In this document: one piece after another, positions 7,105-49,436 of the stretch
Position numbering within the stretch: the first letter of the stretch is position 1
Layout: each line of letters opens with the position of its first letter
Origin: Nemertoderma westbladi
Lineage: Eukaryota > Animalia > Xenacoelomorpha
Length of the DNA stretch: 64,000 bases
NCBI GenBank assembly: GCA_032718475.1
Contig: JAUCBJ010001661.1
Location: 1 to 64,000 of the forward strand
Reading direction: 5' to 3'
The notes under the pieces: model-generated
Seen by the model: the letters and a program-made list of their open reading frames with translations, nothing else
Told to the model about the DNA's origin: nothing
The model's database searches: none
Program-made: the position numbers and the translations under genes

Positions 7105-8340
7105 TGTTCGCGCTTTCAGACCTTTGGCAGTTTAACCCGCCAAATTAGGATGTCTTCTAGATAATAAATCACTTTTAGCCTCTGACAAGTATTTGATTAA
7201 CTACACTAGTCGAAACCAATCGGTGCGCGATCATTCACCCGCTGGATATACCCGGGAGATTGGGTTCGACGGCTTAATCGTATTGCTATGTAAGCCTAAT
7301 GTATTATTCGACTGACAGTATTATATAATCTCTGACAATATTATTCACCTTCGGGGAATATTAACAGTTCCTTTAGGACGTGGCGCTCTATCTATATAAA
7401 CAGAGTTATGACTTAAACTACTCACAACGATATGGCTTAGTTACAATTCACATATATGGCGCATTCTTTAGGAAATGCTTCGTTATCAGTCTCACTCATA
7501 CACAATGCTGCACAATACTGCACACTGATCTGCCGATCTTCACTGATTTTAGTCACATATAAAAGGAACACGGACCGAATCATGTAGGGTCTATCAAATA
7601 ACATTAGATTCACTTCAAACCACTTTAACATAAGTCACAATCGTTATATGTAACCTTTCTCTCTTACCTTCGGTATATCAAGAATATTGGGTTTTCGGGG
7701 TTATTTATCGTTATTCCAAATATAATAATTCATCAACCATATTATGAAGAACCGACAGTAAATAGCAGTATAACAATATAAAAGTATGCACAGGTATATT
7801 AGATTAGGTATGTTGCGTTGATTGAGTATGGGCCAGTTAACCAGTGGCCAGTGTGAGGTCAGGTTTGATAACGGATATATGTCCTTATAATTAAGCCTAC
7901 TAGTGTTAGGCTAAAACAGAAAAGCACAAATATTCCAAAGCCGCTCTCTCCTGGCTCAGGACAGAATGTAAACACTGCCCCTAAAGCATTGCGTGATTTC
8001 TAGGAAATTTCTGTACAAGAGCCATAAAAATGCTCTGATTGGCTGACTGAACTGAGAGATGCCGTAGAACAAAGAAAATCGACACGTATGAATATCAGCT
8101 GTTAACCGTCGTCATAGTAACTACTGTTCAAGAGTAGCTATCACCTTTTGCGTCACGGAATTGCCATAGAATCATCAACTATGCCTTTCACAGTACACAT
8201 ACGGAGGAAATAGCTCTTAGATCCTCTAAAAAACACCGATACAGCAATAATACGGTCTCTTACTCCTATTAAATCAACTACAGAGTATTTTAATGGAAAA
8301 ATAAGAAAAATAACGGGGCAATTCAGCAAAGGCTTTTACA
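7105..8340 (-). repeat. 3' LTR of element 1 (1236 bp)
   Basis: Direct repeat of 21875-23116; differs by about 8 substitutions and two small indels (read by eye); TG..CA ends. Confidence 0.96.
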
Positions 8341-8350
8341 CCGCTCCCAG
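8341..8350 (-). promoter_or_regulatory. Polypurine tract of element 1
   Basis: Minus strand CTGGGAGCGG immediately before the 3' LTR; identical in element 2 (34414-34423). Confidence 0.75.
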
Positions 8351-11399: not shown

Positions 11400-14300
11400 T
11401 TAAGTTGGGGAGTCCCTAGATGTCGGTTGGATTAGGGAAGTGGTCGTGGGAAGAGTTTCTTGCCTTCCATAGTTTCCGGAGAGCTCTCTGTCTCTTTCCA
11501 GTAAACATAAACGACCCACTGGGCGGTTGAGCTGTTGAGTCTCAAAGACTATCCCTGGTTTCTTAAAGTTACGCCGCATGACGACGAGTTCTACTGATCG
11601 CACCAAACCATCGCTCGAGATATGAGTCTCGATGATACGTCCTGTTTGCCATCGCTTACGTGGGAGATCGGGGTCCACAATAAGCACCATGTCTCCAGCG
11701 CTGACGTTTTCTTGCTGCGCAAACCACTTAGTTCGAAGTTGTAGAGTGGGCAGGTAATGTTTCTCGAAATGGTCAGCGAAACGACAGGATAGCAACTGCA
11801 TAAGTTGCCAGGTTCGACGGCAGTACTCGTCTCCGTCTGTGATCTCCGATCGTGGGAGCATGGCTACGGGTTTCTTCAGTAGAAAGTGCGCGGGTGTTAG
11901 CGCTTCCAGGGAATCAGGACTTGAAGAGACTGGCATAAGCGGTCTTTCGTTGAGATAGGCGGCGATTTCCTCCATTAACGTCCGCAATAGTTCGTCGGTG
12001 AGATAAGCGCGACAAGGTACAATAAAGTGGAACGCAGTCTTCACGCTCCTAATCAATCTCTCCCAACTTCCTCCCCACCAAGGGGCGTCGGCGGCGTTGA
12101 AGGTCCAGCTAGACGCTGTTATCTTTAGCTGATCGTCCACCTGTCTTTTGTTCCAGTCCTTTACGTAAGCTTGAATTTCGTTGTTGGCGCCAATGAAGTT
12201 CGTTCCCTTATCCGATCTCATCGTGTTACTGGTTCCGAAACGAGCGATCTGTCGTCGTAAACTCAACACGAAGCTGTTGGTGGATAGATCGTTTACCATA
12301 TCGAGATGGATAGCTCTACAAGTCATACAAACGAAGATGACACACCATCTCTTGACTATAGTCCGGGCACGATATACTTCAATAGGGCCAAATAAATCCA
12401 CACCGGTATTAGTAAAGGGTGGTTCGTAGAAGCTTACTCTTTCCCTAGGTAATTCTGCCTCTCGCTGTGTCAAAGGCCTACTGAATGCTTTCCTACAGGG
12501 TATGCAGTTCCTAAGGACTTGGTTCAGAGCCCTACGGGGTTTATAAAAATAGAAGCGAGTTCGAATTTCGCTCAGAACTCGTTCTCTTCCAGCATGATAC
12601 AGTTTGCTATGAACATCTACAATCATCTTGATTTGTATGTCAAGATTTCTAATGAGTATGGGAAATTTAGTGTCAAAGGATAATGGGGCGTTGGTAAGCC
12701 TACCTCCAACACGTATTAACCCATCTATCATGGTACTAGAGAAGCGATCCCTTAAGCGCATCTGCGGATTTCTTAACAACAGGAAATACTTATCGGGATC
12801 TTCATAGCATTGTAGGAGTCTCAGCATCTGTTTGTTGGTTTCATCATGCTCCTGGTAACTGATCTTCTCCTTTAGAAACCTGTCGGATATCTTGTATTTG
12901 GGAAGATCTTTAACAACATGGACTCGTGCAGACGTTGATGGAGCATCATCACTATTGGTCTTTGTCCCGGAGTAACGATGATGAAAACATCGTTTTAAAT
13001 AGGTGACGGCTTTACAGAGCCGATTCCAGGAGCTGTAGTGACGTATCGCTCTCTGCAAGAGGGGTGAAAGTCCTTGCGCGATATCTGGTATTCCAGATTT
13101 CCAATCCTTGTCACGGATTTCCAAGACTTCTTTAGTCGTGGCGGTGGGTTTCTGATCCAAAGCATCCTCTCCGGAAGTAAATAATACAGATAGATCAACC
13201 GCAGGTTTAAACAACTTCGATTTACTCGCTCGAGTTTTGGGTTTAACTTTCTCCGCTCCCTTGGCCTGTCTGATCTCTGCTGTTGTGAGATGGGGAGGCC
13301 ATTCTTCTTCTTCTCGGTAGAGAAAGTCGGGTCCACCTAACCATTCGGGAGTATTTACCAATTCCTTTGGAGTCGCTCCTCGGGAAGCGATGTCTGCTGG
13401 ATTAATCGTTCCGGGGCAATGTCTCCATTGGTCCATCGTCGTGCGACTAAGTATGATGGCTACTCTGTTGGTAACGAAGACGCTGAACTGACAGACTTCA
13501 TTGGTTATGTACTCTAACACGAGTAAAGCGTCGGTCCAATAGACAGTTTTCTCTAATGGATAGTCAATCTGTTCTGTTACATTCCGGCCGATGGCTGTAG
13601 CGTATAGAGCCGCTTTTAACTCCGCTCGAGGAACTTTCAACTTGTTGTTGATTAATGCCTTAGAAGTAACCAAGGCGACTTTGATTCCATCCGGAGTTTC
13701 CACTCTTAGATAGGCTACTATACCTATTCCCATATCGCTGGCGTCTCCAAACACATGGAGTTGATAGGAATACGTAGGGAGAACATGACCAAAATATGAA
13801 CGGGAAATTATAAAATCTTCGATAGCCGGCAGAGAATCTTCCCATTTCATCCACTTCTTTAATAATTCTCCCTTAAGTGGATCGTCCCATGAGTGGTTTT
13901 CAAGCCACATTTGTTGTACCAAACTACGAGCAATCAATATAACTGGGCTAATAAATCCCAATGGATCGAAATAAGTGCTCAGTATACTTAAGCAAATCCG
14001 TTTGGTTCGAACTGGATTATCTCGCTGTTTTAGCTGGAAAAACAGGATATCTCGCTCTGTGTCCCATTTCAAGCCGAGTGTCTTGGTTTCTGGCAGATCA
14101 TCTTTGATCAAATCTAGATCTTTCGCCCCTCGATCTTCCGCAGGGATCGACTCCAGAAACTCACGGGAGTTGCTGGTGAATTTCGTTAATCGAAACCCAC
14201 CTCTTTTTAAGCACTCTACCGTTCCTTTAGCGACCTCAATGGCTTCCTCAACTGATGGAAGGGACTTCAGATTGTCGTCCATGTATATGTCCCGCTTGAT

Positions 14301-17300
14301 GTTGTCGATCACTTCCTTAGAGAAGGCCTCTCGGTTGTCCTCTGCTGTGGTACGCACTACCGAACAGGCGTTGGAAGGGCTTGAGATTATCCCAAAGGCC
14401 TGGATGGTCATCCAGTACTCCACCGGTTTCTGGTTGAGGTCTCCTTCGGGCCACCACAGAAATCGTAGACTATCTCGATCCCTATCTAACACTTTGACTT
14501 GTAAGAACATGCCTTCTATATCGGAGGCGAAAGCAATCGAATATTGTCTCAATCTTAAAAGAATTCCCAACAAAGATTGAAGTAAGTTGGGTCCGGGTAA
14601 CAATTCAGAGTTAAGGGATTGACCCATGTAAAGAGCGGAGCCATCAAACACTACTCTCACTTCATGTGGTTTACCGGGTTTAGGAACGTAATGGTGAGTT
14701 AAGTAATACGTTCTTTCAGTCACAGGTGTTTCTTCCGGTACTCTCTCCGCGTATCCCTTACTAATAAATTTCTCCAGCTGTGTTTGATACATTTCTTTAG
14801 CTGAAGAATTAGCCGTAAGGCGTCGATGGAGTTGAGCGATTCTTTTTTCCGCCAAGGGTCTGTTATTGATGAACTTCGGTTCTCTCTTGCGGAAAGGTAG
14901 ACCGACTTCATACCTACCTTGATCTTTGAGGAAACGTGTAGTTGTCTCTTGGATCTGCTTGGCCCTTTCTTCTTCCACCGACAAGGCTTTATCGTAGGAA
15001 TTGGGCTCTACCGCCTCTTGCGTAAAGAATCGTACGGCATGTTCATCTCGAGTCTTGGCATTACAACGCTCAATGACGTCATTTAACTCGTCGTTATAAG
15101 CTTCTCGTTCAGTTGGATAAAGAAGTTGACATAAGTTCACTTGGCTTTGCCAAGCCTCGTTTTCCTTAAGGAGATCGATGGTATTCTCCTCATCAAAAAG
15201 CTGGTGAACGTCGTCGTTATCTGAGGAGTATGGGGTTCCCTCAGTTAAATCGTCTCCCTCACTAGTATCATCTTCCCATTCACTCACCTGGCAGACGCGC
15301 TCTTGCGGTAGTCTTTCTCTGAGTGTTCTACGGGAAGGGCCAGTAAAGTACCAACCTACTCTAGTTCTTACCGCATAGGTCTGTAGTGGTTGCGGTTGAG
15401 CAGGCCGTTTCTCTAATGTCTCCAGCGCCTCATGCGCGTTTTGGCCGATGAGTATTTGCACTCCAGGATAATCAGTCTGGAATCGAGGTATGTTAAGATG
15501 TTGGATGCTCTCATCCTCGTCCCAATTATAAAGGTCTGCTTGAGTAGTAGCGAAGTTCTTTATAGCTACCATTTTCACTGACCTTATGCTATGTTCTCCT
15601 AGTTCGTCCTGGGGGGTGGACAACGCGCCTACATAATAATCCGCTGTCACTGTAGATTTCCAAACTTGCATAATGCCGGACATGTTTAGCTTAGTTCGGA
15701 ACTTGGGTTGTCCAGCAAATATGTCTTCGGCTAGCTCTTTGTCGATGAATGTTCCTGTACTACCGGAGTCAAGGAGGGCGTTCACTACATAACTCCGTTT
15801 AGGTCCGTGAACCCTTACCTGCACCACAGGAAACTCTCGGATCCCTACATTGGAAGATGGCTCTTTCCAAGATGGTTGTCGATCAGAAGTAGTTAGAGTG
15901 AAGTCGCTGTCTGTATCTTTTTCATATGTGAGTGCTCGATACACTGCGGTATTTATCATGTAACAGGATTCGTTTTCGTCGGAGAACTCGTCCGTATAGA
16001 ATCCTTCCATCTCAGATTGATCAGTGTCGTTCACATCACTGAATTGGACATGTAGTTCGGAATCACTTACCTGATTCGGACTATTTCGCTCGAATTCAGC
16101 GTGCAACAAGATATGATGTTTCGCACCACACTTTGCACACCTTATGTCAGAGTAACATGTTCGCCGTTGGTGTCCTTGTCTGAGGCAATTATAACATAAC
16201 CGCTTATCCCACATGACTTCACGTCTCTCAGTTAATGATTTCTTTAGAAATTCATCACACATATTTAAGCGATGGGTCCCGTCACATAGCACACATTTCG
16301 GTTTGATGTTACTCACCTTACTCTGAGTCACATTGTGTACACTTGCTTTTTCTTCGGGCTTTCTCACCTGAATTCTCTTGGGAGACGTAGGAGGAGTTTT
16401 TCTTACCTGTTCTCTCCTGTCATTTGTTCGAGACTTGAATTTACTTACCTGATCTTTAGGCATTTTATTTACGTAATAAGATCTATCAGTGTCTTTCCCG
16501 CTATCTTCTCCTTGAGAAGTCTGGCTTTCGCCGTCGTCTGTATAACACACTGGTGTTACCTTTCTCCTTGAGACGGGTTTTTCACTTACCTTGTTTTCCG
16601 GTGTCTTCTCTCTGGACAGTTTCAGGAGCTGTAATTTCACTTCTCCATCTAGGAATGACATGAGATCAGCCATGGTAGGGTCTCGTCGTTGTTGTTCCAT
16701 CATATATAACACTTTCTTATCCCAGCGTGTACCTACTCCACCCTTCGGTAAAGTAGAAGCCACTGCTCTAATAACCATAGCATTCTGATACTCATGAGAC
16801 TTACCTAGCCAATCTAATTGTCTACAGATCTCCTGAATCTCATCGGAAAACTCTATAATTCCACTGCTAATAAACTTTCGGGGCGCTACCAACTTTGCAT
16901 ACAAATACCCAGCTATGTTATTCCTATTACCATACCTGATGTTTAGTGTATCCCAAACTTGTCTTAATCCGTCTGGATGTCCAATAAACTTTAACGCCAT
17001 TAACTTTGGAGATCCTTCCAAGCACTCGATGAGGAATCTAAGTTTCTCTCCATTAGATAGCACAGAGTTCTGTATGTTATCTTTGTAATATTCATTAAAA
17101 GGTAACCATTTCATCTCATCTCCATTGAACTTGACGATCTCTCCCACCTTTACCGCTTGCCGGGCTTCGGTTCTAGCCATTTGACGCGTAAAACTTTCTT
17201 GGGCCATCGTGTTATTTAATATTGAGTTATCGGTATATAAATTTCTCGGATTATGATCTGGTCTATAGGGAATATCATTATCAACAGGTCTATAATTACC

Positions 17301-17405
17301 CTTAATAGGGTTCACTATAGGAGTTTCTACTTCGCTAGCAGTATAGATGCGTGTAGGCTCCACACCTTGCGCATGAGATACTTCAGACCTAACAGGTTGA
17401 CACAT
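11400..17405 (-). CDS. BEL/Pao Gag-Pol polyprotein (gag core, protease, RT, RNase H, integrase), 2001 aa
   Basis: CX2CX3HX4C / CX2CX4HX4C / CX2CX3HX4H gag fingers, LLDSGS protease, YMDD RT, FGDAS RNase H, HHCC plus VDLFGP / SDKGTNF / WERLI integrase. Confidence 0.96.
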   Translation of the reverse strand: MCQPVRSEVSHAQGVEPTRIYTASEVETPIVNPIKGNYRPVDNDIPYRPDHNPRNLYTDNSILNNTMAQESFTRQMARTEARQAVKVGEIVKFNGDEMKWLPFNEYYKDNIQNSVLSNGEKLRFLIECLEGSPKLMALKFIGHPDGLRQVWDTLNIRYGNRNNIAGYLYAKLVAPRKFISSGIIEFSDEIQEICRQLDWLGKSHEYQNAMVIRAVASTLPKGGVGTRWDKKVLYMMEQQRRDPTMADLMSFLDGEVKLQLLKLSREKTPENKVSEKPVSRRKVTPVCYTDDGESQTSQGEDSGKDTDRSYYVNKMPKDQVSKFKSRTNDRREQVRKTPPTSPKRIQVRKPEEKASVHNVTQSKVSNIKPKCVLCDGTHRLNMCDEFLKKSLTERREVMWDKRLCYNCLRQGHQRRTCYSDIRCAKCGAKHHILLHAEFERNSPNQVSDSELHVQFSDVNDTDQSEMEGFYTDEFSDENESCYMINTAVYRALTYEKDTDSDFTLTTSDRQPSWKEPSSNVGIREFPVVQVRVHGPKRSYVVNALLDSGSTGTFIDKELAEDIFAGQPKFRTKLNMSGIMQVWKSTVTADYYVGALSTPQDELGEHSIRSVKMVAIKNFATTQADLYNWDEDESIQHLNIPRFQTDYPGVQILIGQNAHEALETLEKRPAQPQPLQTYAVRTRVGWYFTGPSRRTLRERLPQERVCQVSEWEDDTSEGDDLTEGTPYSSDNDDVHQLFDEENTIDLLKENEAWQSQVNLCQLLYPTEREAYNDELNDVIERCNAKTRDEHAVRFFTQEAVEPNSYDKALSVEEERAKQIQETTTRFLKDQGRYEVGLPFRKREPKFINNRPLAEKRIAQLHRRLTANSSAKEMYQTQLEKFISKGYAERVPEETPVTERTYYLTHHYVPKPGKPHEVRVVFDGSALYMGQSLNSELLPGPNLLQSLLGILLRLRQYSIAFASDIEGMFLQVKVLDRDRDSLRFLWWPEGDLNQKPVEYWMTIQAFGIISSPSNACSVVRTTAEDNREAFSKEVIDNIKRDIYMDDNLKSLPSVEEAIEVAKGTVECLKRGGFRLTKFTSNSREFLESIPAEDRGAKDLDLIKDDLPETKTLGLKWDTERDILFFQLKQRDNPVRTKRICLSILSTYFDPLGFISPVILIARSLVQQMWLENHSWDDPLKGELLKKWMKWEDSLPAIEDFIISRSYFGHVLPTYSYQLHVFGDASDMGIGIVAYLRVETPDGIKVALVTSKALINNKLKVPRAELKAALYATAIGRNVTEQIDYPLEKTVYWTDALLVLEYITNEVCQFSVFVTNRVAIILSRTTMDQWRHCPGTINPADIASRGATPKELVNTPEWLGGPDFLYREEEEWPPHLTTAEIRQAKGAEKVKPKTRASKSKLFKPAVDLSVLFTSGEDALDQKPTATTKEVLEIRDKDWKSGIPDIAQGLSPLLQRAIRHYSSWNRLCKAVTYLKRCFHHRYSGTKTNSDDAPSTSARVHVVKDLPKYKISDRFLKEKISYQEHDETNKQMLRLLQCYEDPDKYFLLLRNPQMRLRDRFSSTMIDGLIRVGGRLTNAPLSFDTKFPILIRNLDIQIKMIVDVHSKLYHAGRERVLSEIRTRFYFYKPRRALNQVLRNCIPCRKAFSRPLTQREAELPRERVSFYEPPFTNTGVDLFGPIEVYRARTIVKRWCVIFVCMTCRAIHLDMVNDLSTNSFVLSLRRQIARFGTSNTMRSDKGTNFIGANNEIQAYVKDWNKRQVDDQLKITASSWTFNAADAPWWGGSWERLIRSVKTAFHFIVPCRAYLTDELLRTLMEEIAAYLNERPLMPVSSSPDSLEALTPAHFLLKKPVAMLPRSEITDGDEYCRRTWQLMQLLSCRFADHFEKHYLPTLQLRTKWFAQQENVSAGDMVLIVDPDLPRKRWQTGRIIETHISSDGLVRSVELVVMRRNFKKPGIVFETQQLNRPVGRLCLLERDRELSGNYGRQETLPTTTSLIQPTSRDSPT

Positions 17406-19698
17406 TGTTACATGGGGGTGGTGGTATACCCCTTTGTGTATTTACTAATTTATCGCGTTCTAGCGCGATACTTTGCTGCACTTCTTGCAACTCTAGCCTA
17501 CTTTCCCTTACTGTGCCTTTGAATTGTTGAACAGTCTCCTGCATCTGTCCGAGCAGGAGATCCATCCCCCGTCGTCTCTCATCCACCCATTCGACCGCCG
17601 AAGCGGGATTCGCCAACGTTGTAGCGGGCGGACGAGGGACAACGGGCGACAAATCATGGATATTTCGCTCGGAGTCCAGGGCATGAACTGTCTCACGGAC
17701 TGTTCTGCTGGGCACAGGTAGCTTAGTGCTGTGCAAAGGGAATTGAGAGGTAGGTTCAGGGAGTACAGGTGTCTCTACGACCGAAAGGGTAGCTTCGGGA
17801 ACAGGCCTAATTACTTCAGGCTCATCTACTATAGTAGGGAGTCTCTCTATTATAATTATTTGGTCTGTGGGTTCTGTACTACCTAAGTTGGTGTTATTTA
17901 GTTGCCTTCTAACAGCTGGAGGCAAATCAGGCAATTTCTGACGGTGGAATGTTCTTTTGCGTCTGCTTAGGTGAGATCTATTTCCTTTGCCTTCAGTATC
18001 GGTGGTATCGCCTTCCTCAGATGATGTATAACCTTGTCTTTTGGGAGTAGATCGATTCATCATCTGCATATTACTAGCTGTTAACTGTTTATTAAAGTTG
18101 TCTTGTTTCTCTTGAAGATTTTCCAACTCTAGTTGGGTTGTCTCTTCAGATGCCCTCCGTTCCGCTTCTGCCACTGCTATTTTTCTTTCCGCTTCGGCCG
18201 CCTTTCTTTCGGCTTCCACTGCTGCCACTTTTCTTTCCGCTTCGGCCGCCTTTCTTTCGGCTTCTACTGCCGCAGCTGCCACCTTTCTTTCCGCTTCGGC
18301 CGCCTTTCTTTCGGCTTCTACCGCCTTTCTTTCGGCTTCTACTGCTGCAGCTGCTACCTTTCTTTCCGCTTCGGCCGCCTTTCTTTCGGCTTCTACTGCT
18401 GCAGCTGCCGCTTTTGCCTCTGCCGCTGCCGCTTTTGCCTCTGCCGCTGCCTCTGCCGCTTTTCTATCCACTTCTGCCGCTTTTCGTTCCGCTTCTGCCG
18501 CTGCCACTGCTGCTGCTGCTGTCTTTCTATCTTCTATACGTTTTTTCTTTACTTGTTCTTCTTGAACCTTAGCGATGCGGATGCTTTCATTGAATTTAGC
18601 TTGGTTCGCAGCTAACCTATCCACATCGATTGCGTCCAACACACGCTGGGCTCCTTCACTATTAGGGCTAAGCCCCTCTAACCTTCTCCTCAACTCTTCA
18701 TCACCAAAAAAACGTTGATAGTCTGACAGATAGATGTCAATGGCATCCCTCTTATGCGGTTTCTCTGCCGTTGCTTCACTTTCCACTTGGGAAAAAGTAG
18801 CGTCTGTTGATTCTCCATGGGTTGAGCGCTCCTCCAGCTGAGCTTTCCACTGAGCTGTTCCTTGAACCTGGCGACTCACCCGTTGAAACCAAGTCTTTAC
18901 GGCAACTTGCAACGACGTGTCTTGTCTTCTTTTAGAAGCCTCCTCAAAGGCCGATAAGATTAGCCTAATTCGCAGAATTCTTTCTCTAACTTGATAAAGC
19001 AGTTGTCCCTGCTCTTGAGGTCCTTGAGGTTGTTGAAACAGTTGTTTTTCTACTCGCTCCATAGAGCTGAAGAATCCCTGTGCGTATCCGGCTGCGGACC
19101 TCTTCCACACAGCTGGATCGATGGTTTCCTTGGCTACTCCCATCCGGTGTATGTCTTCCCAGGCAGCTTCTGATAAATCAAACGGGAGTCCGGGTCCGGG
19201 GAAGTTCCATTGCGACTCGACCATAGACTTCAGTTCTTCCCTTGTATATCCCTCATAACTATCTTTAGTTGATCGCTTACTTCTCGCCCAATCGATCTGG
19301 TGTTCTTCCACCGCGATCAATAACCTAGTGAGTACGGCTGCAGGAAGGATGAGAAGGGGATCCGAATAAACCGCATCCGTCATCCTTGCTCCGCGCTCGG
19401 GTGTCAGCTCTACAGTATCTTCACTACTGGAGCTGTCGGGCCGCTGAGAAATAAGTTCTTGACTCGCGGGTTGTTGCTGTTCCGCTGCTTCTTGGTCCCG
19501 CTTGACCTGGGCTCGAGTGCCTATGATAGACCTACGATGTTGGACCAGCCTAGGTTCTGTTATTACTACTGGAGGGATGACCTTCCTCACAGTGGGAGGT
19601 GAACTGAACTTAGGACTAGACGGTTCTACACCTCTATCTGAGTCGCAGATAGTTACATCTAATAAACTGTCTGACAGGTTCTGCTTAGTATCAGACAT
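17389..19698 (-). CDS. N-terminal Gag extension of element 1, separated from gag-pol by a 1-bp insertion at ~17413
   Basis: Collinear with the first ~700 aa of the continuous ORF of element 2; contains an AAEAERK coiled-coil repeat. Confidence 0.88.
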   Translation of the reverse strand: MSDTKQNLSDSLLDVTICDSDRGVEPSSPKFSSPPTVRKVIPPVVITEPRLVQHRRSIIGTRAQVKRDQEAAEQQQPASQELISQRPDSSSSEDTVELTPERGARMTDAVYSDPLLILPAAVLTRLLIAVEEHQIDWARSKRSTKDSYEGYTREELKSMVESQWNFPGPGLPFDLSEAAWEDIHRMGVAKETIDPAVWKRSAAGYAQGFFSSMERVEKQLFQQPQGPQEQGQLLYQVRERILRIRLILSAFEEASKRRQDTSLQVAVKTWFQRVSRQVQGTAQWKAQLEERSTHGESTDATFSQVESEATAEKPHKRDAIDIYLSDYQRFFGDEELRRRLEGLSPNSEGAQRVLDAIDVDRLAANQAKFNESIRIAKVQEEQVKKKRIEDRKTAAAAVAAAEAERKAAEVDRKAAEAAAEAKAAAAEAKAAAAAVEAERKAAEAERKVAAAAVEAERKAVEAERKAAEAERKVAAAAVEAERKAAEAERKVAAVEAERKAAEAERKIAVAEAERRASEETTQLELENLQEKQDNFNKQLTASNMQMMNRSTPKRQGYTSSEEGDTTDTEGKGNRSHLSRRKRTFHRQKLPDLPPAVRRQLNNTNLGSTEPTDQIIIIERLPTIVDEPEVIRPVPEATLSVVETPVLPEPTSQFPLHSTKLPVPSRTVRETVHALDSERNIHDLSPVVPRPPATTLANPASAVEWVDERRRGMDLLLGQMQETVQQFKGTVRESRLELQEVQQSIALERDKLVNTQRGIPPPPCNNVSTC

Positions 19699-21074
19699 GT
19701 TTGTTTACACAGTTGAATGTCTACTGCAATTACAGTCTAAGTAAGTCTAGTAATTCAGTATTAACTGCTAGCCTAGTAATTAATTACCGATACTGCTACT
19801 CAGTGTAGCGTGATATATAATATATTAGTATACCGGTATACTTAGGGTATATATAAGTATTACTACAGACTAGGTTTTTCACAGAAACCGGTATATAATT
19901 TTAGCACAAATATATATAAATATATAATAGGCCTATCGTGGATACCGGTATGCAGTTTACGCTTATAATGTATATATATAAGTATAATTACAGACTAGAA
20001 TTAATTACAGAGTACCGGTATGATTTCAGCTTAAGTTTATAAAAATAAATATAATAAGCCTATTGGAAATACCGGTATGTCAATTATTTTAAAATAATTG
20101 AATTTCTGAATTTTAAGGGTTACTTGGTTACTTTAACTTACTTTATTACCGTGATTTAAGCAGTAGTCCAACTGATATTGAGACCTAATTGTGGTATGGC
20201 AGGCCTACTATTTATAAATCGTTTGAGTTGATTTATAATATATATATACCCGTTTAATGGGTTTTGTCAATGTTGAAATAAATGTTATTATTTCTGGGGG
20301 GGTCACTACACATAAGTTGTGCGCTCTCAGTGGAGTGCTACTTGTTGGACACTAAAACAAATAATTCTAATTTACCTAAGTTACTTAATACTACAAATTA
20401 CGTACAATTCTGGTTGAGATTACAATCTCTAAATAAACACAAAAATTTAATTACAAATACACAAATACAAATTTTTAGGGTAATTTTACAAGAAGTCTAC
20501 TAACCAGCCTAACAAAGGGTTAGAATATCTGGTTATTACAACGGACAGGTTACTACGGTATTTGAAAATAATAAGTAGTAGTAAATACACTGCGCTGTCC
20601 AGATAGGAAAATACCACCGCCTGACGACCTATAGCCGTATCGCTATAGGTACTACGTTATGTATCACGGAGTGTTCCTACCTAGAAGTTAATAGAGCTAA
20701 CGTACGTGCCTATCAACCACTTTACAACACAAATATAATGCCTACACTAATTACTTTCGGAAAGTACTGTACACTAAACCCTAAATTAGGTACAAGTACT
20801 TGTATAACAAATAATCAGTAGTTAAAAATACTTGAACAGCTAAAAGAACCACGGCATCTGCTGGAGTGACCGGTGCACAAAATCACCAGTCTTTACCTAC
20901 GCCGAGCAGCCCGTATAGTACCGGGGTTAGTTTAACTATAACGGTATGTATAACAAACACAATTACTGTAGGAATAAACTTGGGGATATGAATGTTGCGA
21001 ATAATCGCATAAACTCTGAATAATAAATATTACGCTACGCGTACAAACCATTCAAACAAAATGCAGACCAAACA

Positions 21075-21600: not shown

Positions 21601-21863
21601 TCTGATCAGGCTTACACGCCTTCTGTTCAATACTGGCCTACAAACAAATAAAACTTGACAGAAATAAGTAAAAATCTCAATAAAAAACCAGGGCTGCAGT
21701 CCCTGATTAATTATTAAGGCCTACCGGTATATAATTATCAAAATCGAATAATACTGCTGTACCTGTACTGCTGTATGTACCGGTCCGGGTGGTTAGGTAG
21801 TCAGGCCTACTGGGTACCGGTTGCCGGTACTTCAGCTTTATTGCCTACTGCAATACAGAAGCA

Positions 21864-21874
21864 ATATCCGTTAT
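21864..21874 (-). promoter_or_regulatory. Non-tRNA primer-binding site of element 1, complementary to LTR positions 22643-22653
   Basis: Minus strand ATAACGGATAT abuts the LTR end; no TGG; exact 11-nt inverted match inside the LTR. Confidence 0.75.
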
Positions 21875-23116
21875 TGTTCGCGCTTTCAGACCTTTGGCAG
21901 TTTAACCCGCCAAATTAGGATGTCTTCTAGATAATAAATCACTTTTAGCCTCTGACAAGTATTTGATTCACTACACTAGTCGAAACCAATCGGTGCGCGA
22001 TCATTCACCCGCTGGATATACCCGGGAGATTGGGTTCGACGGCTTAATCGTATTGCTATGTAAGCCTAATGTATTATTCGACTGACAGTATTATATAATC
22101 TCTCACAATATTATTCACCTTCGGGGAATATTAACAGTTCCTTTAGGACGTGGCGCTCTATCTATATAAACAGAGTTATGACTTAAACTACTCACAACGA
22201 TATGGCTTAGTTACAATTCACATATATGGCGCATTCTTTAGGAAATGCTTCGTTATCAGTCTCACTCATACACAATGCTGCACAATACTGCACACTGATC
22301 TGCCGATCTTCACTGATTTTAGTCACATATAAAAGGAACACGGACCGAATCATGTAGGGTCTATCAAATAACATTAGATTCACTTCAAACCACTTTAACA
22401 TAAGTCACAATCGTTATATGTAACCTTTCTCTCTTATCTTCGGTATATCAAGAATATTGGGTTTTCGGGGTTATTTATCGTTATTCCAAATATAATAATT
22501 CATCAACCATATTATGAAGAACCGACAGTAAATAGCAATATAACAATATAAAAGTATGCACAGGTATATTAGATTAGGTATGTTGCGTTGATTGAGTATG
22601 GGCCAGTTAACCAGTGGCCAGTGTGAGGTCAGGTTTGGTTTGATAACGGATATATGTCCTTATAATTAAGCCTACTAGTGTTAGGCTAAAACAGAAAAGC
22701 ACAAAATATTCCCAAGCCGCTCTCTCCTGGCTCAGGACAGAATGTAAACACTGCCCATAACGCATTGCGTGATTTCTAGGAAATTTCTGTACAAGAGCCA
22801 TAAAAATGCTCTGATTGGCTGACTGAACTGAGAGATGCCGTAGAACAAAGAAAATCGACACGTATGAATATCAGCTGTTAACCGTCGTCATAGTAACTAC
22901 TGTTCAAGAGTAGCTATCACCTTTTGCGTCACGGAATTGCCATAGAATCATCAACTATGCCTTTCACAGTACACATACGGAGGAAATAGCTCTTAGATCC
23001 TCTAAAAAACACCGATACAGCAATAATACGGTCTCTTACTCCTATTAAATCAACTACAGAGTATTTTAATGGAAAAATAAGAAAAATAACGGGGCAATTC
23101 AGCAAAGGCTTTTACA
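21875..23116 (-). repeat. 5' LTR of element 1 (1242 bp)
   Basis: Direct repeat of 7105-8340; CCAATCAG box on the minus strand at ~22811-22818, conserved in element 2. Confidence 0.96.
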
Positions 23117-24583: not shown

Positions 24584-24619
24584 TCTGCTGGAAGAAATTA
24601 AATTATTATAAACCTTCAC

Positions 24620-33242: not shown

Positions 33243-34413
33243 TGTTTGCGCTTTTAAGACCTTTGACAGTTTAACCTGCCAAATTAGGATGTCTTTTGGA
33301 TGATATATATTCTTTAGCTTATGACGAGTATTTGATACACTACATTAGCCGAAGCCAGTCTATGCGCAATCATTCACCCGTTGGATATACCCGGGAGACT
33401 GAGTTCGGAGCTTAATGATTGATGGTGTAAGCCTACTGTATTATTCGACTGATCGTAATATATAATCTCTGACTAATATTATTCACTTTCGGGAAATATT
33501 AACAGTTCCTTTAGGACGTGGCGCTCTAAATATATAAACAGAGTTATGGCTTAAACTAGACACAACGAAAAGGCTATAGATTTACGTATATGGCGCATTC
33601 TTTAGGAGATGCTTTGTTATCAGTTACGATCATACACAATGCTGCACAATACTGCACACTAATCTGCCGACCTTCACTAAATTTGGTCACGTATAAAGAG
33701 AGCAACATACAATTTATGTCGGGCATATGAAATAGCATTAGATTCACTTCAAACCACTTAACATAGGTCGCAATCGTTTATCTGTAACCGGTCTCTCTAA
33801 CCTTTAGTATATCAAGAAGGTGGGGTGTCTGACTATTGATCAGTATTCCGATATAATATTTCATCAACCAATATAATGAATAACCGACAGTAAAAGCAGT
33901 AATATTAAGGTATAAATGATTATTAAGTGAATGAGTTAACTCGGTAACTCGCTTGTGCAAATCGTTTGATAACAGATATACGTTCTATAATTAAGCCTAC
34001 TAATGTAAAGCTAAAGAATGCTGATATACGGAGGTGCCAAAAGCCGATGTTCTTAGGCTCTGGGCAAAAACATAACACTGAACTACTGAGTTCTGTATCC
34101 ACCTCCAACACAGAGACAAAAAACGCTCTGATTGGTCGACCGAACAACTAGAGAACAAAGAAACAAAGAAATGTCGACGTGGCAATATCAGCTGTTAGCC
34201 GTCGTCATGGTAGCGACACTGTTTTCAAGAGTATCTAGCTTATCGCGTCACGAGATTGCGGATTATGTCCTCTAAAGTACAAATACAGAAGAAATGACTT
34301 TTATGTCCTCTAAAACACCAGTACAGCAAGGACACGGCCTTTTTATGCCTGGTAAACCAACTACAGAGTACTTTAAGGGAAAATAACCGGTTAATTACGC
34401 AAAAGCTTTTACA
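33243..34413 (-). repeat. 3' LTR of element 2 (1171 bp)
   Basis: TGTTTGCG...TTTTACA; about 3 substitutions and a 1-bp indel relative to the 5' LTR. Confidence 0.96.
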
Positions 34414-34491: not shown

Positions 34492-36267
34492 TTAGTCTTT
34501 CTTACGCGGACGGCGTTTACGCAGTTTTTTGAGGCTAGCAAGAGTCCTTTTCTCTTTGGGGCGAGCCACTTTACTAGGAGGGCTGTAACTCCTGGGTGAA
34601 GGGTGCAATACAATTGCATCAGAAGGTTTCGGATTGCGATCGGTGTATCCGCCGGTCGAGGTACCTGGTTGATCGATATCAACTTCCGTGGAGCGAGGTC
34701 TAACAGCCTTTAGGGCGCGCCTCAGGACAGCAGCTCCTACGGGTCCTTGACGGGTTGTCTGGGCAATGGCGGTAGGCGGACTGTGAGTGGTGAGAAACTT
34801 CCTTGGTTTAATAGTTCTTTCCAGCTCGCGTTCTCGGGCTCGATATTCGTAGGGCCGTCGAGATACTTCCTGTAACTCAGGGTGCGAGTTGATAAATAAA
34901 TCGCCATACTCAGGGTCTTGACGGATATAATTGATCAAATGGTATGAAGTAATATCGTTAGGATTGACATTCCTAAGGTATCTTCTAACAAATTTAGTGG
35001 AAATACACTCACCAACACGCTTCATTAGCTCGTAACTCGGTATGCGTGTTTTTTGTTCCACAGACGCTAATAAATAAGGATGGAACGCGTAAACTCCCTC
35101 GTAAGAGCGTCCAGGGTAGTATCGATGACGGGACTCACAATGTAAATCCGCGTTCGCTTCCCAAGCTCGGATGTAGCGCAGGGTAATCATTTCATCTACG
35201 CTCTCTAAATCGTGATTAAAGGGGCAATTATAACTGGCATGTCCTTTAAGTTGACAGTGGTGGCATTGAGTCATAAATTGGGGGCAGACTGCAAAAATAT
35301 GAGAGTTATTAAGTCTGCAATACGCACAATATATCTCCATCATTGGTTGTTCGTGGAAATAGGAACAGGGTACGTCTGAGTCCATAGGAGTGAAATGGTC
35401 TCTCGATGCGCATAATCGACAACGTTTTCGAGAAACATAGTTAGCGTGTCGATAATCGTATGCGGTGAGACATTGTGGACCTTGATACCACTCTAAGACG
35501 TAGTCGTTATTGCTGCTCCGGGGCACTGTAGGCTGAATCGCTTCAGCTTCTAAGCATATTGGTTCGTCTTCCAATTGCATAGCTGAGGTAGGTGCGGCTG
35601 TCTCCGCAAGCTGACCCACTGTCTGAACTTCGACGACAGAATAACCCGTGGGTATTCGGGGTCTTTGTATAACAGATGAGTGCAAGTTCTGTATACAAAC
35701 GTCCTGAAAAAGGGCAAATCCCGCGCTGTTTAGCTTCTCCGCCGCTGAGTCTCTCAGGCTGAGTTTGGTCAGAGTGCGGTCCTTGAACTCACTATCAACG
35801 TTACGGAACGGAGTCAGAAAGCGCCTGAAACATTCAAAGTGGATGAATTTATTGTGTTCATCTAACTTGGCGAGTTTGGTTCCAAGTATTAAGGGATGGG
35901 CGCGTATGGTACGACTGCACACATCGGCTAGCCAACCGGCAAGTGCTGCATTTTCAAAGATCGTGTATATAGCTAAGGAGGGACGAAGTGGAACACTCAT
36001 AAAGCTATACACGGCACCAGGTGCGGTCAACGGTCCATCAAAGTATAAACGAGAATAATGATCTCCGTATACTTGTTGGTAATTTATAGGATTTCCAACC
36101 TTGAAATTCCATCCGTATTCTTGAAAGGCAAGATGTCCGATGGAGGTTCGTTGTACTTTGGTAATTCCGCTGGGTGTATTGGCATACGTAGTGCGGAAGA
36201 AACCTCGGCCTTCTGCCCAAGGAGCAATCAGCTGAGTATCAACGAAGGGGTATGGAATGTTCTCCAT
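34492..36267 (-). CDS. Accessory protein in the env position, 591 aa, three CCHC-type zinc motifs and a basic C-terminus
   Basis: CRLC..H..C, CAYC..H....C, CHHCQLKGHASYNC (CX2CX4HX4C); ends KKLRKRRPRKKD; no signal peptide or TM segment seen. Confidence 0.8.
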   Translation of the reverse strand: MENIPYPFVDTQLIAPWAEGRGFFRTTYANTPSGITKVQRTSIGHLAFQEYGWNFKVGNPINYQQVYGDHYSRLYFDGPLTAPGAVYSFMSVPLRPSLAIYTIFENAALAGWLADVCSRTIRAHPLILGTKLAKLDEHNKFIHFECFRRFLTPFRNVDSEFKDRTLTKLSLRDSAAEKLNSAGFALFQDVCIQNLHSSVIQRPRIPTGYSVVEVQTVGQLAETAAPTSAMQLEDEPICLEAEAIQPTVPRSSNNDYVLEWYQGPQCLTAYDYRHANYVSRKRCRLCASRDHFTPMDSDVPCSYFHEQPMMEIYCAYCRLNNSHIFAVCPQFMTQCHHCQLKGHASYNCPFNHDLESVDEMITLRYIRAWEANADLHCESRHRYYPGRSYEGVYAFHPYLLASVEQKTRIPSYELMKRVGECISTKFVRRYLRNVNPNDITSYHLINYIRQDPEYGDLFINSHPELQEVSRRPYEYRARERELERTIKPRKFLTTHSPPTAIAQTTRQGPVGAAVLRRALKAVRPRSTEVDIDQPGTSTGGYTDRNPKPSDAIVLHPSPRSYSPPSKVARPKEKRTLASLKKLRKRRPRKKD

Positions 36268-37126
36268 GTTCCCGTTGTATGCCTAATATGTTCTCCGCCA
36301 TGGATGATCGAGAGCAGAGGAAAAATTATTTCGCATTCTGAAATATTCAGAAATACGATCTCAGTAGGAGGATTGTAACATTCGAGGACTATCTCCAACT
36401 GAATTTATCCCCAGTGCGATGAGGTAAACACCAGTCCAAGGATATGTTTGTCTCAGTTGTTCTACATAAGATTTATATATCCAATCATTGAGGGAGGTGA
36501 ACAACCAAATTTATGACACATAATGGTACCAGTTGTTCACAAACCATCCGCGTGTCCTTTCAGTCCTTGTATCACGGTTGTGGACTTAAGGAAATTATTG
36601 ATGGTTGATTTTCTAATCAACAACGAGGGGGTGGAAGTTGATATCATAAATATCAACAGAATGGCACATGGACAAGAGGTGCGGACACCAATATGAGCAT
36701 CCAAATAAACAGTAAAGGGTGGGGAGATTTATTAGGAGGCGGTATGATCCATACCACGATACAACTAGGATTGGTCGATCGTCTCCCAAAGTTCCGAGCG
36801 CATTGGGAAGAGAAGGTGTGACGAAGTGGGTTGTATTTTCAATAGCGATGTATAGAGGGATAAAGGGAGTAAAGAGGAGGGAGGATATAGGGTAGTATCC
36901 ATAAGATACCACAATGGACCAGTTTTCCGTCACGTCATCATTCATTCTTGTCTTTTAATTGTGACACTGATCACAAGAATTACAAGAAAACGATGAGGGA
37001 AGAGAAATTTACAGCCTCCCGATGGAGACCGCCCGCGAGCACCCGTGCCCCGGGGAAAACTATTGACATTATGGACCCTGGACATTAACACACGTCTCTT
37101 CTCCAGTGGTTCTCCTATATTTGTCT

Positions 37127-39166: not shown

Positions 39167-42100
39167 TTAAGTTGGGGAGTCCCTAGATGTTTGTTGGATT
39201 AGGGAGGTGGTCGTGGGAAGAGTATCTTGTCTCCCATAGTTTCCGGAGAGTTCTCTGTCTCTTTCCAGTAAACATAAACGTCCCACCGGGCGATTGAGCT
39301 GCTGCGTCTCGAAGACAATTCCCGGTTTCTTGAAGTTACGTCGCATGACGACGAGTTCTACCGATCGCACCAAACCGTCATCCGAGATGTGGGTCTCGAT
39401 GATACGACCTGTCTGCCACCTCTTACGTGGAAGATCTACATCCACAATAAGAACCATGTCTCCAGCGCTAACGTTTTCTTGCTGCGCAAACCACTTAGTT
39501 CAAAGTTGTAGTGTGGGCAGATAATGTTTTTCGAAATGGTCAGCGAAACGACGGGATAACAACTGCATGAGTTGCCAAGTTTGTCGGCAGTATTCGTCTC
39601 CGTCTGTGATTTCCGATTGTGGGAGCATGGCTACAGGTTTCTTCAGTAGGAAGTGCGCGGGTGTTAGCGCTTCCAGGGAATCGGGACTCGATGAGACTGG
39701 CATAAGCGGTCTCTCGTTGAGATAGGCGGCGATTTCTTCCATTAACGTCCGCAAAAGTTCGTCGGTGAGATAAGCGCGGCAAGGCACTATAAAATGAAAT
39801 GCTGTCTTCACGCTTCTTATTAATCTCTCCCAACTTCCTCCCCACCAAGGGGCGTCGGCGGCGTTGAAGGTCCAACTAGACGCTGTTACTCGTAGTTGGT
39901 CGTCCACCTGTCTTTGGTTCCAATCTTTGACGTAAGCTTTGATTTCATTGTTAGCACCAATGAAGTTTGTTCCCTTATCAGATCTCATCGTGTTACTAGT
40001 GCCAAAGCGAGCGATCTGTCGTCGTAAGCTTAATAGAAAGCTGTTGGTAGATAAATCGTTCACCATATCGAGATGGATGGCTCTACAAGTCATACAAACA
40101 AAGATTACACACCATCTCTTGACTATAGTCCTAGCACGATATACTTCAATAGGGCCAAATAAATCCACACCGGTATTAGTAAAGGTGGTTCATAAAAGCT
40201 TACTCGTTCCCTAGGTAATTCTGCCTCTCTCTGCGTTAAAGGCCTACTGAATGCTTTCCTACAGGGTATACAGTTCCTAAGAACTTGGTTCAGAGCTCTA
40301 CGGGGTTTATAAAAATAATAGCGAGTTCGAATTTCGCTAAGAACTCGTTCTCTACCAGCATGATAAAGTTTGCTGTGAACATCTACAATCATCTTGACTT
40401 GTATTTCAAGATTTCTAATGAGTATGGGGAACTTAGTATCAAAGGATAATGGGGCATTCGTTAACCTTCCTCCAACACGTATCAACCCATCTATCATTGT
40501 GCTAGAGAAACGATCTCTTAAGCGCATCTGTGGATTTCTCAACAACAGGAAATACTTATCGGAATCTTCATAGCATTGTAAGAGTCTCAGCATCTGTTTG
40601 TTGGTTTCTTCATGCTCCTGATAACTGATCTTCTCCTTCAGAAACTTGTCGGGTACCTTATATTTGGGAATGTCTTTAATAACATGGACCTGCACTGATG
40701 TGATTGGAGCGGTATCATCCTTTGTTTTCATCCCAGAGTAGTGATGGTGAAAACATCTCTTTAAATATGTAACGGCCTTACAAAGCCGATTCCAAGAACT
40801 GTAGTGATGCATCGCTCTCTGCAGAAGAGGTGAGAGTCCTTGCGAGACGTCTGGTATACCAGATTTCCAATCCTTATCACGGATTTCCACAATGAGTTTA
40901 TTTGTGGTTGTGGGTTTCTGATCCAAAGTGTCGTCTCCGGAAGTATGTAGTACAGACAGATCTACTGTGGGTTTGAATAACTTCGATTTACTCGCCTGAG
41001 TTTTAGGTTTGACTTTCTCCGCTCCCTTGGCCTGTCTAATTTCTGCTGTAGTAAGATGAGGAGGCCATTCTTCTTCTTCTTTGTAGAGGAAGTCGGGTCC
41101 ACCTAACCAGTCTGGAGTATCTACCAGTTCTTGTGGAGTTGCTCCCCTGGAAGCGATGTCTGCTGGATTAATCGTTCCGGGGCAATGTCTCCATTGATCC
41201 ATCGTCGTGCGACTGAGTATAATAGCTACTCTGTTGGTAACGAAGACGCTGAACTGACAGACTTCATTGGTTATATACTCCAACACGAGTAAAGCGTCGG
41301 TCCAATAGACAGTTTTCTCCAGGGGATAGTCGATCTGTTCTGTTACATTCCGGCCGATGGCTGTAGCGTATAGAGCCGCTTTTAACTCCGCTCGAGGAAC
41401 TTTCAACTTGTTGTTTATTAATGCCTTAGAGGTAACCAAGGCGACTTTAATTCCGTCCGGAGTTTCCACCCTTAGGTAGGCTACTATACCTATTCCCATA
41501 TCGCTGGCGTCTCCAAACACATGGAGTTGATATGAATACGTAGGGAGAACATGACCAAAATATGAACGGGAAATTATGAAGTTTTCGATGGCTGGTAGAG
41601 AATCTTCCCATTTCATCCACTTCTTTAATAATTCTCCCTCAAGTGGATCGTCCCATGAGTGGTTTTCAAGCCACATTTGTTGTACTAAACTCCGAGCAAT
41701 CAATATAACTGGGCTAATAAATCCCAATGGATCGAAATAAGTGCTCAGGATACTTAAACATATCCGTTTAGTCCGAACTGGATTATCTTGCTGTTTTAGT
41801 TGGAAAAACAGGATATCTCTTTCTGTGTCCCATTTCAAACCAAGGGTCTTAGTTTCTGGGAGATCATCCTTTATTAGATCTAGGTCTTTTGTTCCTCGAT
41901 CTTCTACCGGGATCGACTCCAGAAACTCACGGGAGTTGCTGGTGAATTTAGTTAATCGAAATCCACCTTTCTTTAAGCATTCTACCGTTCCTTTAGCGAC
42001 CTCAATGGCTTCTTCTACTGATGGAAGGGACTTCAGATTATCGTCCATGTAGATGTCTCGTTTGATATTGTCGATCACTTCTTTAGAGAAGGCGTCTCGG

Positions 42101-47262: not shown

Positions 47263-49425
47263 AGTTGAATGCCTACTGCTATATTACAGTCTAAGCAAGT
47301 CTAGTAATTCAGAATTAACTGCTAGCCTAGTAATTAATTACCGATACTGCTACTCAGTGTAGCGTGATATATATATAATATTAGTATACCGGTATGCTTA
47401 TGGTATATATAAGTATTATTACAGACTAGGTTTTTCACAAAATACCGGTATATAATCTTAGCACAAATATATATATATATAATAGGCCTATCGTGGATAC
47501 CGGTATGCAGTTTACACTTATAGTATATATAAGTATAATTATTAACTAGAATTAATTACAGAATACCGGTATGATTTCAGCACAAATATATAAATATATA
47601 ATAGGCCTATCGTAAATACCGGTATATAAATTATTTTAGAATAATTGAATTTCTGAATTTTAAGGGTTACTTGGTTACTTTAACTTACTTTATTACCGTT
47701 ATTTAAGCAGTAGTCCAACTGATATTGAGACCTAATTGTTATATGGCAGGCCTACTATTTATAAATCGTTTGAGTTGATTTATAATATATATATACCCGT
47801 TTAATGGGTTTTGTCAATGTTGAAATAAATGTTATTATTTCTGGGGGAGTCACTACACATAAGCTGTGCGCTCTTAGTGGAGTGCTACTTGTTAGACACC
47901 AAAACAAATAATTCTAATTTACCTAAGTTACTTAATACTACAAATTACGTATAATTCTGGTTGAGATTACAATCTCTAAATAAACACAAAAATTTAATTA
48001 CAAATACACAAATACAAATTTTTAGGGTAATTTTACAAGAAGTCTACTAACCAGCCTAACAAAGGGTTAGAATATCTGGTTATTACAACGGACAGGTTAC
48101 TACGGTATTTGAAAATAATAAGTAGTAGTAAATATACTGCATTGTCCAGATAGGAAAATACCACCGTCTGACGACCTATAACCGTATCGCTATAGGTACT
48201 ACGTTATGTATCACGGAGTGTTCCTACCTAGAGATTAATTACCGCGGTCTACCAGAACCAACGTGCCTATTAACCACTTTACAACACAAATACACTGCCT
48301 ACACACTAATCACCTTCGGAAAGCACTGTACACTAAACCCTAAATTAGGTACAAGTACTTGTATAACAAATAATTAGTAGTTAAAAATACTTGAACAGCT
48401 AAAAGAACCACGGTATCTGCCGGAGTGACCAAAGCACAAAATCTCCAGTCTTTACCTACGCCGAGCAGCCCTGATGTAGTACCGGGGTTAGTTTAACTAT
48501 AACGGTATGTATAACAAACACAATTACTATAGGAATAAACTTGGGGATATGAATGTTGCGAATAATAGCATAAACTCTGAATAATAAATATTACGCTACG
48601 CGTACAAACTACTCAAACAAAATGCAGACCAAATACTGACAGACTACTATCAAGCCTAAACAAACTACGGTATATGCAGACTCCGAAATGGTTAAGTAGT
48701 ATGCGTTCTAACCCAGTAGTACGACTTATTCTTTAGATGGGGGTTTACCTTACAGCTATGGCTGCCCCTACTTCCTAACCGTTCTTTATCGGACAGATGC
48801 TTTACACACACCGAAATTTCCTCAAACCCAACAGCAGCCAGACAACTATCCAGCCTACAAATTATCTAAATAAAATTATACGCTACCCGTACAGACTACA
48901 CAAACAAAGTACAGACCAAACGATGGCAGACTACTATCAAGCCTAAATAAACTACAGGACATGCAGACTCCGAAATGGTTAAGTAGTATGCGTTCTAACC
49001 CAGTAGTACGACTTATTCTTTAGATGGGGGTTTACCTTACAGCTATGGCTGCCCCTACTTCCTAACCGTTCTTTATCGGACATACACTCTACATGCACTG
49101 CATTCCGTTCAGACCTAATCAATAGTTAGCCAACAGTCAAGCCTACAAATTATCTGTACAATCTGAGCAGGCTTACACGCCTTCTGCTCAATACTGGCCT
49201 ACAAATAAATAAAACTGACAGAAATAGGCCTAAGTAAAATCCCAATAAAAACCAGGCGTCCCCGATTAATTATTTAGACCTACCGGCATATAATAATCAA
49301 ATCGAATAATACTGCTGTACCTGTACTACTGTAGGTACCGGTCCGGATGATCAGGCAGTCAGGCCTACTGGTTACCGGTCGACCGGTACTTTCGACTAGA
49401 CTGCTTACACCGCAATCTAGAAGCG

Positions 49426-49436
49426 ATATCTGTTAT
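49426..49436 (-). promoter_or_regulatory. Non-tRNA primer-binding site of element 2, complementary to LTR positions 50163-50173
   Basis: Minus strand ATAACAGATAT abuts the LTR end; exact 11-nt inverted match in the LTR. Confidence 0.75.

Follow-up and report, generated by a model that had tools for sequence, protein, structure and literature searches.

How does a retrotransposon start reverse transcription when the sequence behind its 5' long terminal repeat (LTR) offers nothing to which the 3' end of a tRNA could pair? The question is raised by the 64-kb window, that is, the whole stretch of DNA that was analysed, in which two full-length LTR elements were found, both on the minus strand and referred to here as E1 (23116-7105; 16,012 nt) and E2 (50608-33243; 17,366 nt). 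An earlier note on this DNA had proposed that both are self-priming members of BEL/Pao, a group that it took to be generally tRNA-primed. The ICTV profile of the Belpaoviridae agrees with the latter point, describing host-tRNA priming, an 18-nt primer-binding site (PBS) for tRNA-Arg or tRNA-Gly and genomes of 4.2-10 kb, and it regards the replication of these elements as poorly understood (PMC8742986).

Two BEL/Pao Elements and Their Surroundings

The LTRs of E1 occupy 21875..23116 (5' LTR, 1242 nt, TG...CA) and 7105..8340 (3' LTR, 1236 nt) and differ from each other at 13 columns, while those of E2 occupy 49437..50608 (1172 nt) and 33243..34413 (1171 nt) with four differing columns (minus strand, like all element features given below). 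Identity is approximately 99% within each element and 74-77% between E1 and E2. The polypurine tract (PPT) of E1, GGGAGCGG at 8341..8348, touches the 3' LTR with zero spacer, and that of E2 lies next to its 3' LTR at 34421-34414. The N-terminal part of E1 gag is a 771-aa open frame rich in alanine/glutamate repeats (17389..19704), separated by a frame break from a 2013-aa gag-pol frame (11400..17441) that encodes, in this order, DUF1759, Cys-His knuckles, protease, RT (YMDD), the Pao peptidase A17/RNase H region, integrase and DUF5641. In E2, gag-pol (39500..47283) comprises a 2386-aa open frame and a 229-aa frame and is broken in the integrase region, each copy thereby carrying one frame break, in gag in E1 and in the integrase region in E2. 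An extra frame of 596 aa with Cys-His knuckle-like motifs lies between pol and the 3' LTR of E2 (34492..36282); it gave a weak zf-CCHC_3 match (E 0.039), has left in E1 a remnant of its last 54 aa only (8583-8422) and has no counterpart in the 79 metagenome loci of BEL/Pao relatives described below. The untranslated leaders, approximately 2.1 kb long (19705-21863 in E1; 47284-49425 in E2), contain a 288-nt direct repeat and several conserved hairpins.

Family membership was evaluated from the proteins and the element architecture. Pfam matches comprised PF05380 (Pao peptidase A17), PF03564 (DUF1759), PF17921 (integrase zinc-binding) and PF18701 (DUF5641), and the best 120 homologues listed for the RT-RNase H region were all of BEL/Pao type (37-44% identity), those with names being mostly from cnidarians, echinoderms, molluscs and fish. 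A TG..CA LTR pair with a polypurine tract, Gag Cys-His knuckles, the order PR-RT-RH-IN and the Pao-type domains were all found. An 18-nt PBS for a host tRNA 3' end was not found in E1 or E2, a trait that is descriptive in the profile and not the basis of the family (PMC8742986). Pfam returned no match to the chromodomain of Ty3/gypsy chromovirus Pol. The window elements belong to BEL/Pao and not to Tf1/sushi; it is in the way they are proposed to work that they are like Tf1.

Some features of the surroundings are also worth recording. No target-site duplication was found for E1, whose flanks read AAAGG and CCTAC (window 7095-7104 and 23117-23126), and its 5' and 3' LTRs are distinguished by a 5-nt tandem duplication directly after the 11-mer described below; on these two grounds E1 is possibly a recombinant of two insertions. 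E2 has a G run on either side and is inserted in a G run inside a 22-nt tandem array, which extends beyond the element in both directions (33115-33242 and 50609-51250). Besides, the window contains a palindromic MITE-like repeat family in opposite orientations (29345-29621 and 54948-55143) and tandem arrays at 24500-25500, 51265-52028 and from approximately 59400 onwards, with units of 18/23, 100 and 46/51 nt. Two host genes, TIP41 (5208-6206, minus strand) and a Frag1/DRAM member (52237-53109, plus strand), are single open frames without introns, and the TIP41 protein shares at most 51% identity with animal proteins among the best-scoring 120 listed. These two frames suggest that the host may be an intron-poor, long-branch animal.

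A Primer-Binding Site Complementary to the LTR of Its Own Element

In both elements the PBS directly follows the terminal CA of the LTR, from position +1, and reads ATAACGGATAT in E1 (21864..21874) and ATAACAGATAT in E2 (49426..49436). The absence of the TGG expected for a tRNA site, reported in the earlier note, was confirmed for the first 60 nt past both 5' LTRs. Its description of the PBS as the exact 11-nt complement of a motif in the LTR of the same element also holds, as the longest match is 11 nt and begins at +1 in both cases. The motifs, which are the predicted self-primers, lie at 22643..22653 in E1 and 50163..50173 in E2, with copies in the 3' LTRs at 7878-7868 and 33979-33969, respectively. 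Likewise, the G/A difference between the two PBSs is indeed paired with a matching change in the 11-mer of E2, and each variant is confined to its own element. By simple arithmetic on position, this single matched change counts for no more than about 1 in 11, and covariation from one pair in two related elements would by itself be modest evidence.

Chance complementarity inherited by two related elements was evaluated by dinucleotide shuffling of the LTR, which reproduced the match at offset 0 in 16 of 20,000 shuffles for E1 and 25 of 20,000 for E2, and at any offset from 0 to 5 in 52 and 51 of 20,000, respectively; since E1 and E2 are related, these results are not independent trials. Among internal 11-mers, 3 of 13,524 (E1) and 6 of 15,013 (E2) have a complement in the LTR. 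A chance origin could draw on a free scan for contiguous 11-mers, which fired in 12 of 61 loci of relatives and equally in two controls (15/61 and 16/61), indicating that unanchored matches mean little. In the window, however, the repeat pair defines where the LTR ends, a match from +1 arises in about 0.1% of shuffles, and the match both covaries and marks an edge of conservation, which leaves chance hardly credible as an explanation.

An element may also bring its own tRNA-like primer, as has reportedly been proposed for Cer7, a BEL element of C. elegans. Neither tRNA genes nor Rfam families were found in the window, so there is no sign here of an element-encoded primer of that kind.

Conservation and Promoter Clues Around the 11-mer

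The view of the earlier note that the LTR is diverged around the motif holds only in part, as LTR positions 425-479, which hold it, are 84% identical between E1 and E2. The whole U3 side is 62% identical, the 120 nt after the motif 40% and the distal U5 side 82%. Conservation among genomic copies was followed in contigs of public sequencing runs (four runs from three samples, one of which is possibly the source of the window). Summed contig depth, which is no measure of copy number and slopes off at the edges of contigs, fell in X1 from 107,141 at 22640-44 to 8,927 at 22635-39, and loose contig ends clustered at 22638-22644 (four runs, three samples). The drop in depth is consistent with the alignment of E1 and E2, in which identity falls to 40% past the motif. 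Conservation among genomic copies stops at the 3' end of the 11-mer, at approximately 22642. No variants of at least 2% were listed at 22641-22681 in the contigs of the four runs, none at the PBS or the 11-mer occurred among the 40 of 204 variant rows listed, and the E2 letter of the 11-mer was not among the variants listed in genomic copies, in contigs that are unable to phase the PBS with the 11-mer. An exact 24-nt LTR pattern had no match in metagenome contigs, and no relatives were found in the viral contigs scanned.

Directly upstream of the 11-mer lies a conserved block (22654..22691) that could be a core promoter or is splice-acceptor-like. It holds a TATA-like word at -11/-12 in E1 only and a T-rich tract ending in AG at 22687-22686; tract and AG lie 32 nt upstream of the 11-mer in both elements, and the tract stays T-rich in variant copies. 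The CCAAT box from which the earlier note argued for a start near the 11-mer (22814..22818) is conserved in both elements as stated, but it sits 165 nt (E1) and 157 nt (E2) upstream of the 11-mer. No TATA was found at -25 to -35 of the 11-mer, the nearest being at -11/-12 (E1) and -50 (E2); no AATAAA or ATTAAA was found downstream of the 11-mer, nor a conserved strong splice donor upstream of it. Among ten spliced relatives, introduced below, a TATA-like word lies 29-31 nt upstream of the primer in one and 131-201 nt upstream in five, and is absent in four.

These clues bear on a special case of priming by the own LTR RNA, namely a strict copy of the Tf1 mechanism in which the transcript begins with the first A of the 11-mer and its initial 11 nt make up the entire primer. 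An 11-nt PBS at +1 is as described for Tf1 in passages of PMC7175516, the near-invariant 40-nt block directly upstream could serve as core promoter, the U3 side (62%) is more diverged than the distal U5 side (82%), and one relative, L002, has its TATA 31 nt before the primer start. On the other hand, there is no TATA at -30, the CCAAT box is remote, the T-rich tract with its AG occupies the same place in both elements and stays T-rich in variant copies, and in most relatives with a TATA-like word it lies 131-201 nt upstream. With promoter clues so mixed, a start exactly at the 11-mer appears doubtful. The primer may instead be a longer 5' fragment, a tentative reading that we place a little short of even odds. 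A longer capped fragment cut after the 11-mer would prime as well.

A start further downstream would change the picture, because a second TATA-like word (22163..22171) lies downstream of the 11-mer as a rival promoter. If the genomic RNA started there, at 22171, the 11-mer would belong to U3 and be present only at the RNA 3' end or in a short LTR transcript of its own, priming in trans or circularising the RNA. The word is conserved, the summed depth of the run contigs peaks nearby at 22097-22202, and Tf2 has alternative start sites, one of them without the primer, according to passages of PMC5341516. Nevertheless, the transfer template would be lost if the 3' copy were cut, and the primer of the relatives would form only after removal of an intron, as expected of a transcript that runs through the 5' LTR; we consider a downstream start highly unlikely.

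Predicted RNA Structure Around the Primer-Binding Site

Folding of the LTR end and leader of the two elements predicted a U5 helix immediately adjacent to the 5' side of the PBS (22000-21995 with 21883-21878; 21878..22000), in which one pair is C-G in E1 and U-A in E2, a compensatory change. A U5-leader helix of 11 exact pairs, identical in both elements, was predicted to enclose the PBS (22081-22071 with 21754-21744; 21744..22081). Changes on both sides affect 3 of 97 consensus pairs in the two sequences folded, and one hairpin carries two one-sided changes. The stem of AAGCG with YGCTT that the earlier note had placed around the PBS can be drawn, but it costs +4.6 and +5.0 kcal/mol relative to the best fold with the site open, being outcompeted by the rival U5 helix that carries the compensatory change. 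Opening the PBS would cost 2.0 kcal/mol in E1 and nothing in E2 (0), and the site ranks 59th (E1) and 4th (E2) in accessibility among 450 sequence windows; in E2 the 11-mer would bind marginally more strongly at one other site (-11.5 versus -10.9 kcal/mol). The primer:PBS duplex had a probability of 0 in nested folding because it would cross the U5-leader helix, a limit of the nested-folding method. The 3' duplex lies 120 nt from the PBS and is not adjacent to it as in the Tf1 pretzel, a comparison based on two sequences only. From the same two sequences, the predicted U5 fold is suggestive of a PBS that is left largely open.

Relatives With Predicted Intron-Split Primers

A metagenome scan returned at least 600 stretches, of which at least 543 encode relatives, and 79 loci were kept among the matches listed. 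Most relatives whose LTR end is fixed by a repeat lack TGG and show a contiguous complement of only 4-8 nt. Their LTRs contain a GTAAG donor and a pyrimidine-rich AG acceptor, and the flanks, once joined, complement the PBS. Nine relatives among the matches listed have a readable LTR end, comprising seven with split non-tRNA sites, one with a tRNA-type site (L052) and one (L056) that was left out of the pairing test, its repeats having no CA end and no match at that end. When related BEL families were scored, as the earlier note had suggested, 7 of 8 relatives with repeat-defined ends paired over 10-15 nt with their own LTR, only across a predicted intron; in this test the end of L035 was set 10 nt, and that of L048 1 nt, inside the BLAST end after the scan result had been seen. 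The predicted introns (GTAAG(T/C/G)..AG) are 67-149 nt long, exon 1 giving 4-9 nt of the primer and exon 2 giving 5-7 nt.

Several controls were applied to these joints. When any GT..AG was allowed (159-840 candidates each), the best joint still used the GTAAG donor in 7 of 7 relatives, and shuffled leaders reached the observed length in 0-1 of 2,000 trials with strict sites and in 0-21 of 2,000 with any GT..AG. Of 178 pairings across families, none exceeded 7 nt with strict sites, and three reached 12 nt when any GT..AG was allowed. With LTR ends left free in loci that have at least 300 nt upstream, several of them copies of one family, matches of at least 11 nt were found in 16 of 61 loci versus 2/61 and 4/61 in two controls; 2 of the 16 (L042 and L045) are off the true LTR end. 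Three related families (L004, L016 and L046) show a change at the exon 1 end that has its counterpart in the PBS.

The 12 tabulated loci have mutually different PBS sequences that each match the LTR of the same locus, a pattern for which host RNAs would hardly account. A fragment of a host RNA, such as an internal or half tRNA or another small RNA, could in principle prime E1 and E2, with the LTR 11-mer serving as a structural counterpart to the PBS or surviving as a relic, and half-tRNA and internal-tRNA sites do occur in copia elements according to passages of PMC6317226 and PMC5445492. Such priming would nonetheless require RNAs for both PBS variants together with a separate reason for the exact LTR complement, and it is at odds with at least 12 relatives whose differing PBSs are each matched by their own LTR, so that we regard it as unlikely.

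Contiguous primers were sought in the relatives as well. In L012 both LTR copies carry a contiguous 11-mer, the last seven letters of which are those of the split primer of L014, its spliced sister in the tree (support 86.5), and L012 was retained as a contiguous self-primer on account of this sister and of the motif in both LTR copies; intron loss or gain between the two is likely. L026 and L041 were dropped as contiguous self-primers, the free contiguous scan being no better than its controls. In the window elements no strict splice junction giving a primer match was found, their 11-mers being contiguous. The trees, rooted at midpoint and built without named BEL/Pao references (Sinbad, Suzu, Dan, Flow and Sailor), used 69 of the 79 loci with a usable segment, 22 of which were chosen for a second tree. 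Spliced families are scattered over the tree, and the tRNA-type L052 groups with the spliced L002 (support 95.8); there may have been more than one switch of priming mode. The window family forms a long branch that is not firmly grouped with the spliced families.

Individual relatives showed further features. At L052:405 there is a tRNA-Met-type site, TGGTAGCAGAGC, of the kind described in passages of PMC5445492, next to an LTR of 171 nt. Two GTAAG donors occur in the LTRs of L007 (6479/6570), L008 (849/908) and L046 (2401/~2486), and may reflect a second intron or alternative joints. L015:1-18507 consists of three identical head-to-tail units with shared single LTRs, either a tandem insertion or the assembly of a circle. 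The purine tract of the window elements resembles those of the relatives, with no spacer at either end, like L048, and the correlation between PPT spacer and PBS spacer length was not significant (rho 0.52, p 0.056, n=14).

Proposed Mechanism and Significance

We propose that E1 and E2 prime reverse transcription with RNA of their own LTR and not with a tRNA 3' end, a reading to which we assign a probability of roughly 0.78 on sequence grounds. It is well supported, mainly by the relatives, whose differing primer sites each match their own LTR, and to this extent the proposal of the earlier note is supported. The transcript would start within the 5' LTR, either at 22653 or some tens of bases further upstream. 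The U5 and leader helices are predicted to keep the PBS largely open in a loop, into which the 11-mer would pair in a crossing, pretzel-like arrangement. Cleavage immediately behind the 11-mer as in Tf1, probably through the RNase H of the element, would free a 3'-OH, from which RT would then make strong-stop DNA of approximately 768 nt in E1 and 726 nt in E2. Plus-strand synthesis would recopy the primer into the PBS in every cycle, which would explain both the G/A-C/T match and the resemblance of the relatives' PBSs to exon-exon joints.

The family in the window probably represents the intron-less version of a broader BEL/Pao system with a predicted splice-joined primer, a step that we infer rather than read from the tree because of its long branch and of the position of L052 beside the spliced L002. 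For its contiguous primer, intron loss would be a simpler reading than independent origin. On a wider scale, it is an even bet that a large share of the BEL/Pao elements of aquatic animals dropped tRNA priming and let the spliceosome join the primer from two LTR exons so that only spliced RNA is reverse-transcribed, whereas the high-copy family of the window lost the intron and converged on a Tf1-like 11-nt ATAAC site, freeing its replication from splicing.

If confirmed, BEL/Pao would be the third superfamily with self-priming, which was already predicted outside Ty3/gypsy for copia TAR elements according to passages of PMC6317226, and PBS-based annotation would miss these elements. The predicted splice-built form in the relatives is more surprising than the contiguous form in the window. 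Splicing would there build the primer and couple RNA processing to reverse transcription. Such elements would also be expected to escape control by tRNA-derived small RNAs. Moreover, contiguous families beside split ones (the window; L012/L014) offer the same duplex with and without an intron, a contrast that is directly testable.

Comparison With Known Systems

No paper describing self-priming or spliced primers in BEL/Pao was found in the literature searched, which included passages of PMC3601003, PMC5341516, PMC5445492, PMC5443660 and PMC8220671 and had subscription journals, Repbase reports and supplements outside its scope; the terms 'PBS' and 'tRNA' are absent from the main texts of the BEL/Pao surveys PMC554778, PMC3118150 and PMC6238403. 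In Tf1, passages of the respective sources state that the first 11 bases pair with the PBS and that RNase H cuts between bases 11 and 12 (PMC7175516), that three duplexes form a pretzel around the PBS (PMC10085805) and that the PBS starts with ATAAC (PMC11042837). Self-priming has been predicted for Tj1 (passages of PMC4600332) and for moss Tcn1 and the plant copia TAR elements Houba and Osr-1, by a rule that asks for a complement of at least 10 nt starting 0-5 nt after the LTR (passages of PMC6317226).

Tf1, Tf2, Tj1 and sushi elements share with the window elements the lack of a tRNA site, an 11-nt PBS directed at their own LTR RNA and a PBS beginning with ATAAC; their flanking duplexes, which involve PBS-adjacent sequence and U5, have a suggested counterpart in the predicted folds of the window elements. 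Unlike them, the window elements have BEL/Pao enzymes, no chromodomain match, an 11-mer that lies approximately 780 nt before the end of the LTR, a transcription start that may differ from the 11-mer, and relatives whose primer is split by an intron. With the Belpaoviridae they share TG..CA LTRs, Gag knuckles, PR-RT-RH-IN, Pao peptidase A17, DUF1759 and DUF5641, but they lack the tRNA 3'-end site of the profile and are 16-17 kb long (PMC8742986). Copia TAR and Tcn1 belong to other superfamilies; the complements in E1 and E2 fall within the rule used for them, at least 10 nt and an offset of 0-5 nt, but a contiguous-match rule of this kind would miss intron-split primers. The BEL/Pao relatives with predicted splice-built primers likewise have no tRNA site and a predicted pairing of 10-15 nt with their own LTR RNA, whereas the primer of the window elements would form without splicing, pairs from +1 and lies in LTRs two to three times longer.
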